Assembly (NCBI GenBank): GCA_016840465.1
Contig: JAEOSH010000003.1
Span: forward strand, 1 to 32,000
Length of the DNA: 32,000 nt
Direction: 5' to 3'
From: Candidatus Baldrarchaeum yapensis
Lineage (GTDB): Archaea; Asgardarchaeota; Baldrarchaeia; Baldrarchaeales; Baldrarchaeaceae
Shown: one piece after another, positions 860 to 9,076 of the stretch
Layout: every line of letters starts with the position of its first letter
Position numbering within the stretch: the first letter of the stretch is position 1
Notes under the pieces: model-generated
Told to the model about the DNA's origin: nothing
Database searches by the model: none
What the model saw: the letters and a program-made list of their open reading frames with translations, nothing else
Translations under genes and position numbers: made by a program

Positions 860-3800
860 GTGCAACCATTGTCAAGTGCTATAAGACGGGTTTTCGAACT
901 TGCAAATGAGGTTTTAGACAAATTATCAGTTCCGGCGGGATTTGAGGAGAGCATGCAGCGTCTATTGGACACATCGGTGAGAATATCGAAACTCAGGGAG
1001 GAATTGAAAAGCACATCTGCGTTGCGTAGGCGGCGGAGGAAGGAACTTGAAAAAAATATAAGGGATTTCGAGGAAAACGCAGAGGATCTTGCAAGACACT
1101 TACTCGATGAGAGTGAGCGGATAATAATTTCAGAGGTAAATGAACTGAAGGCGTTTGCCGGGAAGTTTATTGATGTGTTGAGCGAGGGGTCAAAAAGGGC
1201 AATCCAAGAATTATCGGAAAGGCCGCCCATTGGAGATCTTGAAATGAGGGCGGAGCAGGATCTACGAAATCTAAGGGCACTGTATAATGCTTATAACCTT
1301 GTCAAGAATGATATTAAGACGTGGATATCGAAGAATAGGGATTTTCTCAGCGATGAGGTCCACCTTGTGAGGGAATTAAGTGAAATATTGTCGCTGGGGC
1401 ATGATGTTAGCGAGGAGGCCGTAAACCGCCTAAAGGGGTTAATCGAAGAATTGGACAAATCATCGAAAATAGATATTGCAACGTTGGAAAGCGTTGGGAG
1501 CGATGCGCGAAAAATAATAGATGAGTTAAAGAGGAGGATATCAAACTTCGCAAGAGCGATACGCCAAGAGTTGACTTCATGGAACGATAAAATAAGTGAG
1601 ATATCCTCTAAGATCGGTGCAGATGGATTAAGAGTCCCTCCTCATCCTCAACTTGTTGCGAATAGTCCAGATACGTATTCCGATATTGGCTCGTATCTCA
1701 GAGACGCGTTGTCTGACGCGAGAGCCCTAAGTAGGTACGAATCGGAGCTTAAGAGGATAATACTGGACAGAATATTATCGATACATAAGAGGAACAGAGT
1801 TCTCTACGAAACCTTCAGGAAGTATGTTGAAGTGGAGAGTCTAAAGCTATCGTACACCTTAAAGGAGCCTCCTGGGCCGGATTCGAGGCTAGATGAACTC
1901 TATGCGGTATTTGAGGGCTTAAGGGGTGAGGAGGAGTACCTTTCGAAGGTGGGTGCACGTGCCTTCAGTAGCCTGAAGAGCGAGTTGCAGTCGAAAATAT
2001 TAAGATTATCCACACAAATGAATCTCGCGCGTGAGCACGACGTGGAAATTCCTGATGAAATATCAACGAGACTGGAAACGCTATCAGCACATTTGGAAAG
2101 GGTGAAGGATGTAGAGGATATACTTACGCTTGAGAAGGAAATATCTCTCGTTGAAGGCGGTCTCAGAGATGCTGTTAGGAATTACGCTTTGGAGGAAAGA
2201 GGACGACTACTCTCGATGATATCAGGAATTCCGTCTCTTGCCGAACCTCCCGAGATAACGGGAACGACGGTCGAGGAATTCATAAGAGGACTTCACTCCC
2301 TGAGAAGGTGGGCTAGTGATGCAATTCATACGCTGAAAATGGAGATCGAGGGAATAATTGCTGAGATGAGGAGAGGTCTCGATACTCTGAAGGGAACAGA
2401 GTGGTACGACGAGGAGGTTGAGAGAGAGGTTAATTCTCTGACGGCGCATTTGGAGGAGATAAAGAGTTTCGAGGACGCCGTTGAAACGTATCGGAGGGCG
2501 CGTAGTTTATTGAAGAATGCAAGTGAGAAGCTTTTGATGATAATAGATTCGATGAGGAGGGACTTCCTTGAGGTTCTGAAGATAGCCGAAGAATTATCAG
2601 CGGAGATGCCGATAACGGTGGTGGTTCCTTCGATAACCGAGATAAAGGCGTCATATTCGGAAATTGCGAAAATGATAATAGATCTGAGCAAGAAGGTTGA
2701 GCAAAGGGACAAGGTTCTAAGGGATACTCTTATAGAGAACCTGAACAGGATTAGAGACAAAATAGAGGGGGTTCCACAAAGGTACTTTGAATTCTTCAAG
2801 CCATTACTTGAGGTAATTGACGATTGCATTAAGAAACTATCGCAGGCAAAGACGGTAATAGAAATCCGGGAGCTCTATACGAGAACGATAAAGGATCTTT
2901 CTCGTGCGTTGCAGGAAAGCTTTTCTGCAATGAAGTCGAACGTACTATTGAAAGTCAGAATGGTATGTTTGAAGTTGAGAAACCCGCCGGATCTCAGTGA
3001 AAGTTTCGAGGCGATTAATAGGACGTCCGTTGAGCAGTGGGAGTTGCCGTCAGCGGTTTACGAGATCGATACCATTTATAGGAAGAAAATACTGCCCGTG
3101 CTTAGGGATCGCGTGATATCCGAGGCCGAGAAGTATGTCAAAATGTTGGAAGGGCTCAAGGCTTACGGGATAGATGTTCACGAGTTTCTGGTATCGATAA
3201 ATGAAACTCTGAGGAGCGTTAAAGAAAAGGAGATGATAGATGCGCAAGATTTGAGCAAGGCATGCGAGAAAATAAATAAGATAGTCACTGATAAGAAACT
3301 CCGTTCGGTGATAACGGAGTGGGCGAAATCAATGGTATCCGCACTCGAGAGATCACATCCATACATTTCTGAGTATGAGGAGGTAAGCCCGGAGTTCGCA
3401 CACAGGTTTGCAGACGCCATATCTGAAATAAGGCATCAGGTTAACATGTTCGACTCGATGGACATGGAGAGGATATCGGAGGTCGTGTCAGAGATTAATG
3501 ATTTTTGGAACGTGACCCGTAGCTTCATATTAGAAATAGAGGAGCGCAAATCCAAAGAGTTGGAGGAAGAGTTACGTAAGATGCCGTATTATGACACAGT
3601 AACTGGAGTTTATAATGCCAATAGGAAGATATTTGATGAGAAGATTTTCCCGCTGTCAAAGATCCAGGAGATAAAGGAAAAGATAAGGGAAACACAGGGT
3701 CCCGAAGTTCTCGAGTTGATAAGGGAGAAGAGGGAATTAGAGGAGGAATGGGGCAAGAAGGTTCCGGAAATAATTACATGGCATAAGGCAGTGAGAGTTT

Positions 3801-3949
3801 TTCTTTCCGGTGTTGGCATACTCGATAGTGAGGAGGTAAAGGAGCGTCGCATGCAAGAAATATTTGAGAAGATAGATAGAATATTTAAGAGGGAGGATGT
3901 GCGGACGTATCTCAAGCTTGCGATCCGCACGCTCCTAGGAGGTAGATAA
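860..3949 (+). CDS. Large all-helical coiled-coil/helical-repeat protein (1029 aa), function unknown
   Basis: Long ORF with a GTG start. E/K/R/L/I-rich amphipathic helices broken by short Pro linkers. No P-loop, transmembrane segment or signal peptide seen. Stop is 2 nt before the tubulin-family gene. Confidence 0.85.
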   Translation: MQPLSSAIRRVFELANEVLDKLSVPAGFEESMQRLLDTSVRISKLREELKSTSALRRRRRKELEKNIRDFEENAEDLARHLLDESERIIISEVNELKAFAGKFIDVLSEGSKRAIQELSERPPIGDLEMRAEQDLRNLRALYNAYNLVKNDIKTWISKNRDFLSDEVHLVRELSEILSLGHDVSEEAVNRLKGLIEELDKSSKIDIATLESVGSDARKIIDELKRRISNFARAIRQELTSWNDKISEISSKIGADGLRVPPHPQLVANSPDTYSDIGSYLRDALSDARALSRYESELKRIILDRILSIHKRNRVLYETFRKYVEVESLKLSYTLKEPPGPDSRLDELYAVFEGLRGEEEYLSKVGARAFSSLKSELQSKILRLSTQMNLAREHDVEIPDEISTRLETLSAHLERVKDVEDILTLEKEISLVEGGLRDAVRNYALEERGRLLSMISGIPSLAEPPEITGTTVEEFIRGLHSLRRWASDAIHTLKMEIEGIIAEMRRGLDTLKGTEWYDEEVEREVNSLTAHLEEIKSFEDAVETYRRARSLLKNASEKLLMIIDSMRRDFLEVLKIAEELSAEMPITVVVPSITEIKASYSEIAKMIIDLSKKVEQRDKVLRDTLIENLNRIRDKIEGVPQRYFEFFKPLLEVIDDCIKKLSQAKTVIEIRELYTRTIKDLSRALQESFSAMKSNVLLKVRMVCLKLRNPPDLSESFEAINRTSVEQWELPSAVYEIDTIYRKKILPVLRDRVISEAEKYVKMLEGLKAYGIDVHEFLVSINETLRSVKEKEMIDAQDLSKACEKINKIVTDKKLRSVITEWAKSMVSALERSHPYISEYEEVSPEFAHRFADAISEIRHQVNMFDSMDMERISEVVSEINDFWNVTRSFILEIEERKSKELEEELRKMPYYDTVTGVYNANRKIFDEKIFPLSKIQEIKEKIRETQGPEVLELIREKRELEEEWGKKVPEIITWHKAVRVFLSGVGILDSEEVKERRMQEIFEKIDRIFKREDVRTYLKLAIRTLLGGR

Positions 3950-3951
3950 AG

Positions 3952-5331
3952 TTGGAGGAAATGGAAGAAAAGGTTCCGGCCTCTAGTGTTTTCCTGCTCG
4001 GAGTTGGAGAATGTGGGGGGAACCTCCTCGGTGAATATATAAACGCGGAGAGAGAAAGGGGGAGAATGACGCGGGTTTCTGGATACTTGTTGCTCAACAC
4101 GAACCAGATGGATGTCATCAAGGCACGGGAGCGGTATCACATCCCCCCGGAGAACACGTTGATATTCGGCGATACGCCGATGGGGGTCGGAGGAAGATTC
4201 ATGGAGGCGTATAGTCTCGTTGACACGTGGTGGGATACGATAGCAGATCAAATTTCGAGTTTGGGCGGTGATGTTGCAAACACGTTCATAATTCTCACCT
4301 CCACGGGAGGGGGGACCGGTTGCGGGGCGACACCAGCGCTCATCAGGCAGATCAAGGAGACGTTTGGGAAAACCCGTAGGGTATACGTTTATGTTGCCGC
4401 GGTTCTCCCATTCGAGGGACAGAGTAGTGAGGCTCTTAACACAACTTGGTTACTGTACAAACTCATGCAGGAGCCCACATCGTCCAAGGAGATTGCCGAT
4501 CTCGTAATTCTCCTCTCGAATAGAACTATGCTTAGAAGAAGGTTGCAACACGACCGAAGGCTCGTGATGGACATCATCGGAGCGAGTCTGGGAGTCGATA
4601 CGAGTGATTATCAGCAGATAGAGAAGGTGTTAAAGTACACCGGAGAGGTAAGTAGCAAGGCTCTCGAGAAAACTTTCATAGACATAGTGAATCCGCTCAT
4701 TGTGCAAACACTGATAAAAATGCTTGAACTCTCAACATATGCTCCTGACAAGAACATATTCCCGACAATAGACTTTGCAGATTTAGCAAACAGATTAGAC
4801 ATAATAACGGTTCCCGCTCTCTTTACAGATATTCCATATGAAGCCCTCAAGGACGAGCGTGGAAATGTCGACATGGATTCTCTATCGGCGTTCTTGGAGG
4901 AGGTGGTGAACGTCACCGTGAGGGCGTACAGTTTGGTCGACATTGGGGACGAGCCCTCGGCGTCCAGCGCCTTCTACATACTTAGTGGACCACAACAGTT
5001 TACGGACGTACACCTAGATATTCCAATAAAACGGGCATTAGGGTCTTACTTAGCAGAAGGTGCGTCGATAACTCCTGTTTTTGTACAGTACAAGCAAAGG
5101 AACATGCCTATGGATCTACTCATACTGCTAGGATTACCAAAGCTCGAGGAGATCAGAGAAATTATGCGTGAGGCCTACCAACTCATATCATTGCACAGCG
5201 GGAGTAAGGTCAAGGAACGGTGGTTCCTTAAGAGCAAGGGGGTCTCTAGGGAAGTCTTCATAGATGCTTTGAGAGAACTCATGGAGTTGTTCGACGTTGA
5301 GGAATCAGAGATCGAACTTTCAGGAACATGA
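3952..5331 (+). CDS. Divergent FtsZ/tubulin-superfamily GTPase
   Basis: T1 GVGECGGN, NTN, T3 GVGG, T4 signature GGGTGCG (4306-4326), VLPFE, T7 IDFADL (D at 4771). TTG start has GGAGGT 7 nt upstream; ATG 3961 is an alternative start. Confidence 0.92.
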   Translation: MEEMEEKVPASSVFLLGVGECGGNLLGEYINAERERGRMTRVSGYLLLNTNQMDVIKARERYHIPPENTLIFGDTPMGVGGRFMEAYSLVDTWWDTIADQISSLGGDVANTFIILTSTGGGTGCGATPALIRQIKETFGKTRRVYVYVAAVLPFEGQSSEALNTTWLLYKLMQEPTSSKEIADLVILLSNRTMLRRRLQHDRRLVMDIIGASLGVDTSDYQQIEKVLKYTGEVSSKALEKTFIDIVNPLIVQTLIKMLELSTYAPDKNIFPTIDFADLANRLDIITVPALFTDIPYEALKDERGNVDMDSLSAFLEEVVNVTVRAYSLVDIGDEPSASSAFYILSGPQQFTDVHLDIPIKRALGSYLAEGASITPVFVQYKQRNMPMDLLILLGLPKLEEIREIMREAYQLISLHSGSKVKERWFLKSKGVSREVFIDALRELMELFDVEESEIELSGT

Positions 5332-5368
5332 GCGGGAAAGGGAGATATTAACCCTTTTTATTAGCTAT

Positions 5369-6178
5369 ATGACTTCTATTCTTGAGTTACAGGAGCGAAT
5401 AGTGGCTTTGATATCCAGTATAGTGGAAAAGCCGGAGGAAAATGAACAAATAAAGGAACTTGCAAACTCGATTCTGAAGGAAATATCCGATTTGAGGGAG
5501 AAAGTAAGCAAAGAATTTGAGAGAATTAGACCATCAGAGAGAGAGGAAAGAGAAGAGATTGCAGAAGAAAAGGTCGTGGAAGAGGATCCTTGGGGCATTA
5601 TATTATCAACTGAGGCTCTGATTAGGAAAGTATCTAGCACCCATGATGTTCTCCTCCCAAAGGCCCTATTATGCGTGATAAAAGAGCTGCATGCTGCTCA
5701 AACACCGGAAGATTTGCGAAATAATGTCGTGAGGCATGTCTGTATAGAGTTAAGGGACATAATTCATGAAATGCTGACTCGTGAGCCATACGTCGGTTTG
5801 CTAAAGGCCATAAAGGGAAAAGATGAGGAGGAACTTCTGGAGGAGGATGTTTCGAATCTTAGAAGGTTGGTGGAAGGGTTCCTGAGGGGTATCAGTGACA
5901 GATTCAAGGATCCTGAAAGCGGATGGAAAAACAGTCTGCTTGCCGCGCGCTTTTCCTTAGATGTTTTTGATTGGGGTGGTCCTTCTGTAGAAAAACGCTT
6001 TTTGCATCTGTTTTATCAGCGTATGAAGAACCTATTGCAAAGGGTGGAAAAAACAGAAAACATAAGAGATAAGATTTTAAACGCCGAACTTGCGATTTTC
6101 TTAGGAAATCTTGTGAGATATTTTATTGATTCTAAGCGATTTAGGGAAAGGCTGGAGAGGATGAAGCGCGCCTTATAG
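5369..6178 (+). CDS. Hypothetical all-alpha protein (about 269 aa)
   Basis: The ORF track starts at TTG 5297, overlapping the upstream gene by 35 nt; ATG 5369 avoids the overlap. N-terminal helical hairpin, acidic/basic linker, helical C-terminal domain. No recognised motif. Confidence 0.72.
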   Translation: MTSILELQERIVALISSIVEKPEENEQIKELANSILKEISDLREKVSKEFERIRPSEREEREEIAEEKVVEEDPWGIILSTEALIRKVSSTHDVLLPKALLCVIKELHAAQTPEDLRNNVVRHVCIELRDIIHEMLTREPYVGLLKAIKGKDEEELLEEDVSNLRRLVEGFLRGISDRFKDPESGWKNSLLAARFSLDVFDWGGPSVEKRFLHLFYQRMKNLLQRVEKTENIRDKILNAELAIFLGNLVRYFIDSKRFRERLERMKRAL

Positions 6179-6180
6179 CG

Positions 6181-7464
6181 TTATAATTTCTCCAAATATC
6201 GTACTATGGATCCGTACGGTATTTCGACCTTATTGCCCCTTCTTGTGTAGGAAAATACTGGAACTCCGACCTTGTTGAACAAATCGGCGTACTTGTTGTT
6301 AACGAGTAAGATTATAGGAACTCCGTTCTTTCTTAGAAGGTCTATTTGAGCAGTTTTCTTTGAAAGATATTCCCTCCGCCAGAAGCCTATTATTTCGACG
6401 AAAACTCTTTTGTTGTCTCTTTGGAGGAGAAAGTCAGGCACTATCATCATACCTTCGAAAACGAGGGGCATCGGTTCACGTATGATCGTCCATCCCTTGG
6501 GTTTATTTGCGTGGAATGCCCAATAGAACTGTTTCTCTACTTGGCTGTCGAACATGCTTTCTTTCACCGCATACTTTTCAGGCACTTTGATGTAAGGAAG
6601 GGTTCTCCTATCTGCCTCATAGAAGTACTGCTTCTTGCCTATCACGAGATCCATGTGAAGTCTTAAGATATTAGCTTTCATCTTTTCACACACCGAAAAG
6701 GTGGAGAACAGCGCATAACTTAATGGCTTTCCAAATCGTGTGGCCCTTCCGAATAATTCTCGTGGACCGTAATACTTTATTTCGACCGCCTGACCACGCA
6801 CGAAGAGGTCACACAACACCGAGTACCTTTTTGCCAGCTTAATTGCAATTCTTGCAATTCTTCCCAACTCCTTAGATTCCACCGCTAGTGATATGCTTTT
6901 GGAATTTGACACCAAGGTCTCGATAGCTTCAAAATTATAAACACCAATGAGGTCGAGTACCGTCGGCTTTTTCTCATCTCGAGTAAGTACTAGGTTTGTA
7001 TCCTCATCTGCCCAGAGAATTTTCTCCAAGTCCTCAATAGGTATCCCCATTTCCTCGGAAAATTCTTTTAACGCGGTTGTACGCATGTGAGATGGCACGA
7101 ACCCCCCATACCGCTTGTTTATCCATTCAAATAACAACTGTCGTAGGTCTGCCGGACTATCGATTTTTTTGCTCTTAAGCACGGCTATCGTTTCTTGTCT
7201 TACATTTTTTAAAATATCAGGTTTTTCGAGTCTGTAAATTTTCAATAGCGCGTGAATGATCCCCCTCCCTATTCTCCTATCATCGAATAGATTCTCAATC
7301 AACTGAAGCGGGACCTCCTCTATTCTTTTTCCCAGATTTTCTTCGAATATCTGTATGGCGAGTGACAACTCGTTTTCAAAACTCATATCGAGGAAAAACG
7401 GAAATATTTGCTTCTTGAAGGTCTTATAACACAAATTCGAAAGTCCGAGCCCCATCTTATGCAT
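6181..7464 (-). CDS. bax1: Bax1 / DUF790 nuclease, partner of XPB
   Basis: C-terminal FDSQVEKQF...REP...VPDFLL...FVEIIGFW resembles the DUF790 PD-(D/E)xK-type nuclease motif. Overlaps the xpb stop by 8 nt. Confidence 0.85.
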   Translation of the reverse strand: MHKMGLGLSNLCYKTFKKQIFPFFLDMSFENELSLAIQIFEENLGKRIEEVPLQLIENLFDDRRIGRGIIHALLKIYRLEKPDILKNVRQETIAVLKSKKIDSPADLRQLLFEWINKRYGGFVPSHMRTTALKEFSEEMGIPIEDLEKILWADEDTNLVLTRDEKKPTVLDLIGVYNFEAIETLVSNSKSISLAVESKELGRIARIAIKLAKRYSVLCDLFVRGQAVEIKYYGPRELFGRATRFGKPLSYALFSTFSVCEKMKANILRLHMDLVIGKKQYFYEADRRTLPYIKVPEKYAVKESMFDSQVEKQFYWAFHANKPKGWTIIREPMPLVFEGMMIVPDFLLQRDNKRVFVEIIGFWRREYLSKKTAQIDLLRKNGVPIILLVNNKYADLFNKVGVPVFSYTRRGNKVEIPYGSIVRYLEKL

Positions 7465-9076
7465 CCTCTAACTCTGTCTTCCTTCTACGCGAGAGAGGGA
7501 CCTCTATAGTCCTTTTTGTGATAATTTCTATAAGAATGGCCTTCTCATCTTTTGGACGAAGTAATCTTCCAAGCCTTTGTATGTACTGCCGTTCGCTTCC
7601 GGTGCCGCTGACAATTATCCCAACGGAGGCGTCCGGAACATCTACGCCTTCATCTAGAACCTCTCCCGTGACTATCTTTGTTATCCTTCCCTCTCTGAAC
7701 GCTTCTAATATTTTCCTCCTCTCCTCGGCACTCGTCTTATGGGTTATCTTGGGGATGAGGAAAAGTTTTGAAATTTTATCGACAAAACCTGTATACCTCG
7801 AAAATATTATCACTTTCTTATCCTTATACCTGCTCAACAACTTTTCTAATACTCTTATCTTATTTTTGGCACCAAGCGCTATTTGTCGTGCCCTCTCACG
7901 TGCAATTAGGACATCATGGGCTATGGGGTCCGATCTGCTGAGTTTTACAACCTCCTTAAATGCCTCTTTCGGATCCTTATTTATACAATGAAGGTCGACA
8001 TACCTTCTATATTTCTCCATAAGGGTGTTGTACTCTATTGCCTCCTCAGGTGTAAGATCAACATATATTCTTCTTATTTCGTAATCTGCAAGATATCCGT
8101 CTTCAACAAGCTCTCTCGTATCCGATTTGTATACTGTTGGCCCTATCAGTATGTCTAAATCCTTGTGGAGTTCATCGGCTCTTTTTGGTGTCGCGGTAAG
8201 CCCCATTCTTGCCGTACATGGCATGCATTCGGCAATTAACCGGTAACTTGGTGATGCGAGATGGTGAACCTCATCAGCTATTAGAAGGCTGAACTTATCG
8301 GCGAGTGCATGAACGTTCAGGTACGCGCTATCATAAGTTATCACAGTAACGTCTTTGATCTCCTTCTTTCCGCCCCCGAAAATCCCGACCTCCTCATCGG
8401 GAACATCAAGCATTGTGCATATTTTATCTTTCCATTGCTGGAGTAAATCTATTGTGGGAACTACTATGAGCGACTTCAACTTCAGTTCGTGAATTGCCCA
8501 GAGTGCAATGTAAGTTTTTCCAGCTCCAGTTGGTAAAACTATCACACCTCGCTTATCGTTAGCCAGCCAGGCGTTATACGCTTCCTTTTGAAATGGTCTT
8601 AATTCAAAAAGAGGGGATGTTTCGAACGATATTTTCTGTTCGGTTTCAAAGGTGATGATGGGCTTGATGCCGTACTTCTCGAAAACTTTCACTATTTGAC
8701 TTAAGTACATAGGCTTTGCCCGGAAGAGTTTGTCCTGTCGATCCCAGACAACAAGATTCTCGGCTTCAGGAGGTACCGTTGAAATTCCGTCTATGACAAG
8801 ATCGGACCCCTTAAGGGAGATTACCGCCGCTGGCTTTTTCTCTCTAAGCAGATTTAATAAATCTGCGTTCAAACTTATGTTATGCTTGGAAAGAATCCTG
8901 ATAATTTCACTTGGCTTTTTCTCAAGGCACTTTTCTAGGTTAAGACGGTAAATTCCTCTTTTTCTTGAGGTATCAAACCTAATGTAATCTGCGATGGTGA
9001 GAAGTTCCTCGAAGTCCTCTCTAGACATCCACTTTACGATCTCAAACCGTAGATTCGATAGTGAGATGGCTCTCAT
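7457..9076 (-). CDS. xpb: XPB/Rad25 SF2 DNA helicase
   Basis: LRPFQ (Q motif), LPTGAGKT, DEVHH, GLTATP, LDEGVDVP, QRLGRLLR; adjacent to bax1. Confidence 0.9.
   Translation of the reverse strand: MRAISLSNLRFEIVKWMSREDFEELLTIADYIRFDTSRKRGIYRLNLEKCLEKKPSEIIRILSKHNISLNADLLNLLREKKPAAVISLKGSDLVIDGISTVPPEAENLVVWDRQDKLFRAKPMYLSQIVKVFEKYGIKPIITFETEQKISFETSPLFELRPFQKEAYNAWLANDKRGVIVLPTGAGKTYIALWAIHELKLKSLIVVPTIDLLQQWKDKICTMLDVPDEEVGIFGGGKKEIKDVTVITYDSAYLNVHALADKFSLLIADEVHHLASPSYRLIAECMPCTARMGLTATPKRADELHKDLDILIGPTVYKSDTRELVEDGYLADYEIRRIYVDLTPEEAIEYNTLMEKYRRYVDLHCINKDPKEAFKEVVKLSRSDPIAHDVLIARERARQIALGAKNKIRVLEKLLSRYKDKKVIIFSRYTGFVDKISKLFLIPKITHKTSAEERRKILEAFREGRITKIVTGEVLDEGVDVPDASVGIIVSGTGSERQYIQRLGRLLRPKDEKAILIEIITKRTIEVPLSRRRKTELEDA

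Follow-up and report, generated by a model that had tools for sequence, protein, structure and literature searches.

A CetZ-related GTPase of the Asgard-specific Asg.Tub clade with a predicted tubulin-like H11'-H12 tail

The GTPase gene and its clade

The stretch of DNA analysed here (the window) comprises positions 1 to 32,000 of contig JAEOSH010000003.1 of Candidatus Baldrarchaeum yapensis (assembly GCA_016840465.1, forward strand). It carries an open reading frame (ORF) for a GTPase of the tubulin superfamily, which forms a cassette with one gene on either side (Table 1). The ORF starts with TTG, with GGAGG lying 9 nt upstream and an ATG at codon 4. The original prediction, made from the letters of the DNA, had described the protein as a mixture of FtsZ/CetZ-type and tubulin-type motifs. 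Its T1, T4, H7-like, T7 and C-terminal motifs all lie at the residues it had given, W424 included (TGG at 5221-5223), with LPKLEEIREIMREA at residues 395-408 and an RWF...EIE stretch at 423-455, and the mixture itself is borne out by what follows. PF00091 was the only Pfam family found in the protein, with 49.3 bits (E 9.5e-13; cut-off 33 bits). Scanning residues 195-459 returned no CetZ_C (PF21011), Tubulin_C (PF03953) or FtsZ_C at E<=10, scanning residues 240-400 and 380-459 returned no relevant family, and the FtsZ equivalog TIGR00065 scored 14.2 bits and did not reach its cut-off of 295.2.

Searching 5.8 billion proteins recovered 41 relatives, and all those with a source name come from Asgard metagenome-assembled genomes, where they are annotated as hypothetical. 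Identity to the GTPase is 65% within the Baldrarchaeota and 40-47% for the Thor-, Loki-, Hod- and 'Asgardarchaeia' sequences; the Thor, Hod and Loki homologues align over 97% of its length. When 1.8 billion cluster representatives were searched exhaustively with HMMER, a single distant full-length relative was added, P0043 (28%), followed by matches to the GTPase domain only. CetZ_C is carried by 23 of the 39 nearest outsiders of the family. P0043 has GxGEGGGN, GGTGCG and LGAPKI (H11) motifs as in the family, with another tail, and its locus (L015:7001-9149) lacks the large upstream gene described below; pyrimidine-synthesis-like genes stand in that place, and an overlapping 262-aa ORF lies downstream.

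By its sequence, the GTPase is a member of the Asgard-specific clade that Santana-Molina, del Saz-Navarro and Devos (2023; PMC9871819) named 'Asg.Tub' and of which they reported four sequences. Their C-terminal alignment (Thorarchaeales, Heimdallarchaeia) shares the signature LLGLPKIPE...HSG..LK..WF.RSKG with our family. In their hands a hidden Markov model (HMM) for the Asg.Tub C-terminus matched no other family, coiled-coil genes were seen nearby, and the placement of the clade in trees was unstable, either basal to the tubulins or with CetZ; from shared indels they judged it CetZ-like, with 'limited similarity to CetZ'. An Asgard archaeal clade described as 'CetZ-related' that serves as an outgroup in a preprint (bioRxiv 10.64898/2026.02.15.705738) is probably the same one, and the existence of non-canonical tubulin-superfamily members in Asgard archaea was reported by Brown and Duggin (2023). 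Our literature search found no paper on either the structure or the function of Asg.Tub. To PMC9871819 we add a Baldrarchaeota-like member, the distribution of the family (76 of 201 genomes), the homology, over 17 loci, of the genes on both sides, and a predicted H11'-H12-like tail tested against controls.

In the family profile, built from 29 members, the nucleotide-binding site is complete and strongly conserved (the T1-T6 loops and the H7 asparagine), and T7 is of the FtsZ/CetZ type, with two invariant aspartates. Invariant columns make up 50 of the 183 in the GTPase domain (residues 13-195). The T4 signature GGGTGCG is the same in 29/29 members; in T1, H7 and T7 the residues G17, G19, E20, G22, N24, N247, P248, D274, A276 and D277 do not vary, and C21 nearly does not. 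Towards the C-terminus the same holds for P396, E400, A408, W424, F425, K429, G430 and L446. The insertion between H6 and H7 is poorly conserved; its model consists of two short helices with a predicted local distance difference test score (pLDDT) of 49-55.

Table 1. Features of the GTPase gene and its cassette, in window positions
Feature	Positions	Strand	Description
Upstream cassette gene	860..3949	+	1029-aa all-helical protein; stop ends 2 nt before the GTPase start
GTPase gene, Asg.Tub clade	3952..5331	+	Open ORF, 459 aa, tubulin superfamily
N-terminal GTPase domain, S1-H6	3988..4536	+	Residues 13-195; Pfam PF00091
T1 loop GVGECGGN	4000..4023	+	Residues 17-24; aligns with the CetZ GxGQcGG loop
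T4 signature GGGTGCG	4306..4326	+	Residues 119-125; aligns with GGGTGSG of CetZ and tubulin
Insertion between H6 and H7	4537..4656	+	Residues 196-235; family-specific, about 35-40 aa
Core helix H7 with VNPLIV	4654..4725	+	Residues 235-258, predicted; VNPLIV at 246-251
T7 loop TIDFADL	4765..4785	+	Residues 272-278; catalytic acidic pair D274, D277, aligns with CetZ DxxD
C-terminal (activation) domain, S7-H9-S8-H10-S9-S10	4804..5133	+	Residues 285-394; AlphaFold2 secondary structure
H11 helix, CetZ-like	5134..5196	+	Residues 395-415; predicted helix 399-414, pLDDT about 90
H11'-like helix and loop	5197..5247	+	Residues 416-432; predicted helix 419-429
H12-like helix	5248..5292	+	Residues 433-447; predicted helix 433-446, pLDDT about 88-93
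Variable C-terminal tail, locally acidic	5293..5328	+	Residues 448-459; not conserved in the family
Downstream cassette gene	5297..6178	+	293-aa all-helical protein; 35-nt overlap with the 3' end of the GTPase gene

Position relative to CetZ and tubulin

We compared the family profile with a CetZ profile made from 23 full-length relatives of the CetZ_C-bearing protein P0042. The two aligned in hhalign from T1 to the C-terminus (probability 99.9%, E 5.6e-31, 364 columns), pairing T2 (NT), T3, T4, T5, the H7 asparagine (on which N247 falls), the T7 DxxD and helix H11, and leaving the H6-H7 insertion unmatched. The C-terminal half of the family alone matched CetZ at E 2.8e-6. Helix 395-415, which had been likened to the PRIKEL helix of CetZ, does align with CetZ H11. 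Pfam Tubulin_C had picked out 8 real tubulins from Asgard genomes, those of the Odin type plus an AtubA/B-like pair; with the profile of these the family aligned in the GTPase domain only (121 columns, E 3e-9). The CetZ profile was closer to these same 8 tubulins (E 4.6e-18) than the family profile was, although the greater diversity of the CetZ profile gives it some advantage here. Sequence matches to solved structures were weak and fell in the N-terminal domain only (CetZ1, 1.9e-6; beta-tubulins, about 1e-3). Taken over its whole length, the GTPase is closest to CetZ by profile comparison.

AlphaFold2, given the family alignment alone and no templates, modelled the GTPase with a pLDDT of 84.7 and a predicted template modelling (TM) score of 0.87. 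The model has the two-domain fold joined by H7 with the T7 loop (VIA Z 36-37 against CetZ and tubulins). In Foldseek it matched CetZ1/2, OdinTubulin and gamma/beta-tubulin at E values from 1e-17 to 4e-19, with CetZ2 and CetZ1 at the top (E 4e-19; TM score 0.82-0.83 by target) and gamma-tubulin, OdinTubulin and beta-tubulin close behind.

A tree of 74 sequences (15 Asgard FtsZ, 23 CetZ, 13 Asg.Tub, 8 Asgard tubulins and 15 other matches) recovered each of the groups. Asg.Tub formed its own clade with a Shimodaira-Hasegawa-like approximate likelihood ratio test (SH-aLRT) value of 100, with P0043, P0051, P0079 and P0054 as loose sisters, and FtsZ was separate (SH-aLRT 96). CetZ, Asg.Tub and the tubulins share a polytomy, from which the tubulin stem extends for 2.46 substitutions per site. 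Asg.Tub and the tubulins fell on one side of a branch with an SH-aLRT of 60 in the full-length tree and 84 with the GTPase domain only, raising the possibility that Asg.Tub is sister to the tubulins, having split off after CetZ, with H11'-H12 as a shared derived trait. Asg.Tub would then be a surviving intermediate, which we consider unlikely. It would fit the published trees that sometimes put Asg.Tub basal to the tubulins (PMC9871819), the resemblance of GECG in T1 to the GQCG of beta-tubulin, and two features of the tail examined below, namely a match to tubulin H11'-H12 that is missing from the CetZ tail and a model that aligns with tubulins up to the end of H12. It does not fit the profile distances given above, with CetZ closer to the family than tubulin is and CetZ itself closer to tubulin, nor the T2, T7 and H11 of the family, which are of the CetZ type. 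Trees constrained to unite Asg.Tub with CetZ had an equal or higher likelihood (approximately unbiased test, p-AU 0.60, and 0.73 for the GTPase domain), the long tubulin branch invites long-branch artefacts, and the authors of PMC9871819 reached their CetZ-like verdict by way of the indels.

The original prediction had gone further and proposed a possible evolutionary intermediate between CetZ/FtsZ and tubulin. This is not supported, the full-length match being to CetZ and that to tubulin lying only in the GTPase domain. The phylogeny of the GTPase domain, suggested at the time as a check, grouped Asg.Tub with the tubulins at an SH-aLRT of 84 and did not reject a grouping with CetZ. The status of Asg.Tub as an intermediate is unproven, in line with the literature, where the idea of a position between CetZ and tubulin can already be found (PMC9871819).

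The predicted H11'-H12 tail

In the AlphaFold2 model the last strand (residues 387-394) is followed by three helices, 399-414, 419-429 and 433-446, with pLDDT values of 88-93. VIA aligned the model with OdinTubulin, BtubA/B, beta-tubulins and AtubB over about 355-367 residues (Z 36-37.5, rmsd 2.5-3.1 Å), and on the model side these alignments run to residues 449-450, that is, to the end of H12 (417-420 in Odin; 421 in sequential or 431 in alpha-based numbering of beta-tubulin). The alignment with the Methanosaeta CetZ (3zid, the sole solved CetZ shown) reached model residue 423 only. The packing of H11'-H12 was judged from these alignment ranges alone. At the level of prediction, these ranges support an H11'-H12 pair placed as in tubulin after a CetZ-like H11.

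The profile of the tail points to the same segment. Its best hhalign match to the tubulins is H11'-H12 (score 29.1, pairwise E 7e-4, probability 26%), and the profile of the whole C-terminal half also matches this tubulin segment best. In this register W424-F425 coincide with the aromatic pair that precedes H11', G430 pairs with tubulin G412 and A439 with A421, and L446-F447 meet the end of tubulin H12; V449 falls on Odin I417 and beta-tubulin E431, the pair with which the structural alignments also end. This is the region and the register that the original prediction had aligned by its W-[YF]-x-G pattern. None of 300 column shuffles reached 29.1 (mean 13.5, standard deviation (SD) 2.4, maximum 22.9). 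Reversing the query or the target gave 12.6 and 13.7, the highest of 26 windows from real helical profiles (those of the two neighbour families) was 17.4, and the CetZ tail scored 12.3 against tubulin. Because the match exceeds the shuffled, reversed, helical and CetZ-tail controls, the likeness of the tail to tubulin is, at the level of sequence profiles, beyond chance, though weak as HMM matches go. Homology between the H11'-H12 segment and its tubulin equivalent is probable. By eye, the last 50 residues of the CetZ-like protein P0057 (...FAEGISESEF...) resemble the tubulin motif GEGMEEGEF; this candidate was rejected (hhalign E 0.33).

When all PDB sequences were searched with an HMM of the C-terminal half or of the tail, tubulin, CetZ and FtsZ were all missing from the matches, as they were in the corresponding Pfam searches. 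What the PDB searches did return (Kelch/BTB, RuvB and a hydrogenase small subunit) are chance matches. For the tail profile, a match to tubulin H11'-H12 was obtained with hhalign and a match to Pfam Tubulin_C was not; that family spans only about residues 261-378 of Odin and cannot test H11-H12, and the missing match therefore says nothing about these helices.

CetZ ends in H11 and a tail, as the alignment ranges and the CetZ1 preprint indicate; in CetZ1 the tail terminates in a hydrophobic motif of the LESLF type, which docks on the outer surface. The last 45 residues of the GTPase could be a family-specific elaboration of such a tail, in a protein that is a divergent CetZ; the likeness to H11'-H12 would come from convergence of amphipathic helices, amplified by AlphaFold's memory of tubulin. 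The full-length profile match to CetZ, the ...ELF end of the family (which aligns with the end of the CetZ tail), the hhalign probability of just 12-26% for the tubulin match and the tubulin-free HMM searches speak for such an origin. We nevertheless regard it as rather improbable. The tail-tubulin match stands about 6-7 SD above the shuffled, reversed and real-helix controls and is collinear, in the register of the structural alignment, whereas the profile of the CetZ tail gives no such match and the CetZ profile offers no counterpart to the invariant W-F...K-G block.

Conservation is uneven along this part of the protein. Conservation in H11 and H11' equals that of the H7-T7 region, with L411, H415 and S418 also invariant; 5 of the 17 columns in the H11' region (416-432) do not vary, against 1 of 15 in H12, which is moderately conserved. 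Residues 448-459 are the least conserved part of all (mean top-residue frequency 0.38, 0/12 invariant; most members end in SYYM..G), and residues 451-459 are modelled with a pLDDT of about 62. The acidic end that had been compared with that of tubulin is not conserved, and an 'E-hook' is therefore not a trait of the family.

Gene cassette, proposed function and comparison with known systems

The GTPase gene does not travel alone. Of 17 loci drawn from seven Asgard families, all 17 have a homologous gene for a large helical protein (873-1393 aa) immediately upstream of it, and 16 have a homologue of the downstream gene (helical protein of 293-392 aa) immediately 3', the exception being a second, paralogous copy; the cassette genes are separated by tight intergenic gaps or overlap. 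Word-indexed homologue searches with both neighbour proteins found only themselves, and their relatives were gathered by synteny and jackhmmer. For the upstream protein no Pfam or NCBIfam family reached its cut-off. An alignment with its counterpart from Thorarchaeota covers 733 residues at only 20% identity (E 8e-32), and the Hodarchaeales counterpart aligns best over the last 190 residues; the C-terminal end is therefore the most conserved part of this protein. Second, more divergent Asg.Tub paralogues occur in some genomes of one Asgard family (G135, G138 and G183). At one such locus (L033, G138:C10:7000-18500; ORF 5997-7331) the large upstream gene is kept and no downstream homologue is found within 400 nt.

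The downstream protein has no Pfam family. Its AlphaFold2 model (pLDDT 86) is a coiled-coil hairpin followed by a helical C-terminal domain (residues 100-293, pLDDT 94-98), for which the PDB gave no fold match at E<=1e-3. In the AlphaFold Database clusters it falls into its own uncharacterised family, beyond which there are weak matches to the C-termini of uncharacterised proteins, headed by U1PAW8 (1096 aa, E 3.6e-3).

Convergent with the cassette, on the - strand at 6181-9076 of the window, a gene for a Bax1 endonuclease (DUF790, E 4.7e-47) overlaps that of an XPB/RAD25-type helicase. XPB-Bax1 is a usual archaeal gene pair. With this pair, methionyl- and arginyl-tRNA synthetases (MetRS, ArgRS), an eRF1-like factor and pyruvate:ferredoxin oxidoreductase as neighbours, the window looks like ordinary chromosome; tRNA and Rfam scans of it detected no RNA genes.

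The genome measures 2.27 Mb, is 96% complete and has two FtsZ genes on another contig. We searched 201 Asgard genomes with the family-specific C-terminal half as query and found the family in 76, usually as a single copy. Its presence is bound to lineage: 4/4, 38/43, 16/19, 5/5 and 10/10 genomes in five GTDB families have it, against 0/41, 0/21 and 0/4 in other families. Searched as a whole with PF03953, the genome of the GTPase itself gave no tubulin and other Asgard genomes gave 7 real tubulin loci, and Asg.Tub is absent from all seven genomes with a true tubulin among the 201. This lack of co-occurrence is a pattern, not a test, and involves few independent lineages. Directly after each of the Odin-type tubulin genes (L008-L013, e.g. 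L012:2009-3355 and L010:1-1339) comes a conserved ORF of about 445 aa, which suggests that true Asgard tubulins may have a fixed partner gene as well.

The reading we favour, with somewhat more confidence than doubt, is that the protein is a CetZ-related GTPase of the tubulin superfamily, belonging to Asg.Tub, which forms filaments and carries a tubulin-like H11'-H12 tail, being neither a tubulin nor a demonstrable intermediate. By analogy with its relatives it is most likely a GTP-driven filament former. Established knowledge of FtsZ, CetZ and tubulin provides the basis for the steps of assembly: subunits would polymerise head to tail in a GTP-dependent manner, each T7 loop completing the GTPase site of the following subunit. 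Beyond the CetZ-like H11 the chain would fold into H11'-H12 on the face that in tubulin is the outer, partner-binding surface. The tail of CetZ1 has been reported on this same outer face (CetZ1 preprint). We infer partner binding at the outer surface of the GTPase, where the conserved H11/H11'/H12 face (W424, F425, K429, G430) would dock one or both of the cassette partners, or else the adjacent subunit. The module would be a cytoskeletal system that acts on cell shape or on membranes, apart from FtsZ-based division.

Several points weigh against this. The hhalign probability of the tail-tubulin match is low, the HMM and Pfam searches with the C-terminal half or tail stayed empty of tubulin, CetZ and FtsZ, H12 is only moderately conserved, and the structure of the tail was predicted by a network whose training included tubulin. 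We also infer, for all family members, the polymerisation, the GTPase activity and the partner binding. No polymer has been observed for any Asg.Tub member, and the 35-40-aa insertion before H7 could disturb the longitudinal interface; the GTPase might form no filament, working as a switch in monomer or dimer form or regulating the large helical protein. We think this very improbable, since the DxxD pair of T7 is invariant and would be useful only inside the active site of a neighbouring subunit. To our knowledge all characterised relatives with an intact T7 loop (FtsZ, CetZ, TubZ and tubulin) polymerise.

In eukaryotes the outer surface of tubulin (H11-H12) carries all motor and microtubule-associated protein (MAP) traffic. 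A widespread Asgard protein with a CetZ-like core, a predicted tubulin-like outer surface and two co-inherited partners bears on how this surface arose from FtsZ/CetZ-like ancestors, and provides a system amenable to expression for the questions whether H12 came before tubulin, what such a surface bound when there were no motors, and what tubulin-free Asgard lineages have in its place. A bolder proposal, to which we give a low probability, is that H11'-H12 predates the split of CetZ and tubulin or marks a stem-tubulin lineage; Asg.Tub and its two partners would in that case be a third Asgard cytoskeletal system, in lineages without true tubulin, whose filaments bear 'MAP-like' proteins of their own on an outer surface like that of tubulin. 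For now, with the clade already published (PMC9871819), the practical gain is modest.

Among known systems, CetZ (PDB 4b45, 4b46 and 3zid) shares with the GTPase the NT of T2, the GVG of T3, the DxxD of T7, the H7 asparagine and H11, but it has no insertion before H7 and no counterpart to the WF..KG block of the family. Unlike CetZ, the GTPase also has a fixed gene neighbourhood of a different kind, and in the searches run it was confined to Asgard archaea. FtsZ is similar in its GTPase domain and in the DFAD kind of T7 loop, and differs by FtsZ_C and TIGR00065, both of which are unmatched in the GTPase. The tubulins (alpha, beta and gamma, OdinTubulin, AtubA/B and BtubA/B) resemble the model in fold from end to end, H11-H12 included, and have a GxCG-like T1. 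They differ from the GTPase in T2 and T7: established knowledge and the tubulin alignment give NxDxxE/K at T7 and D-L-E at T2 for tubulin, whereas the GTPase reads T-I-D-F-A-D at T7 and L-N-T-N/D at T2.

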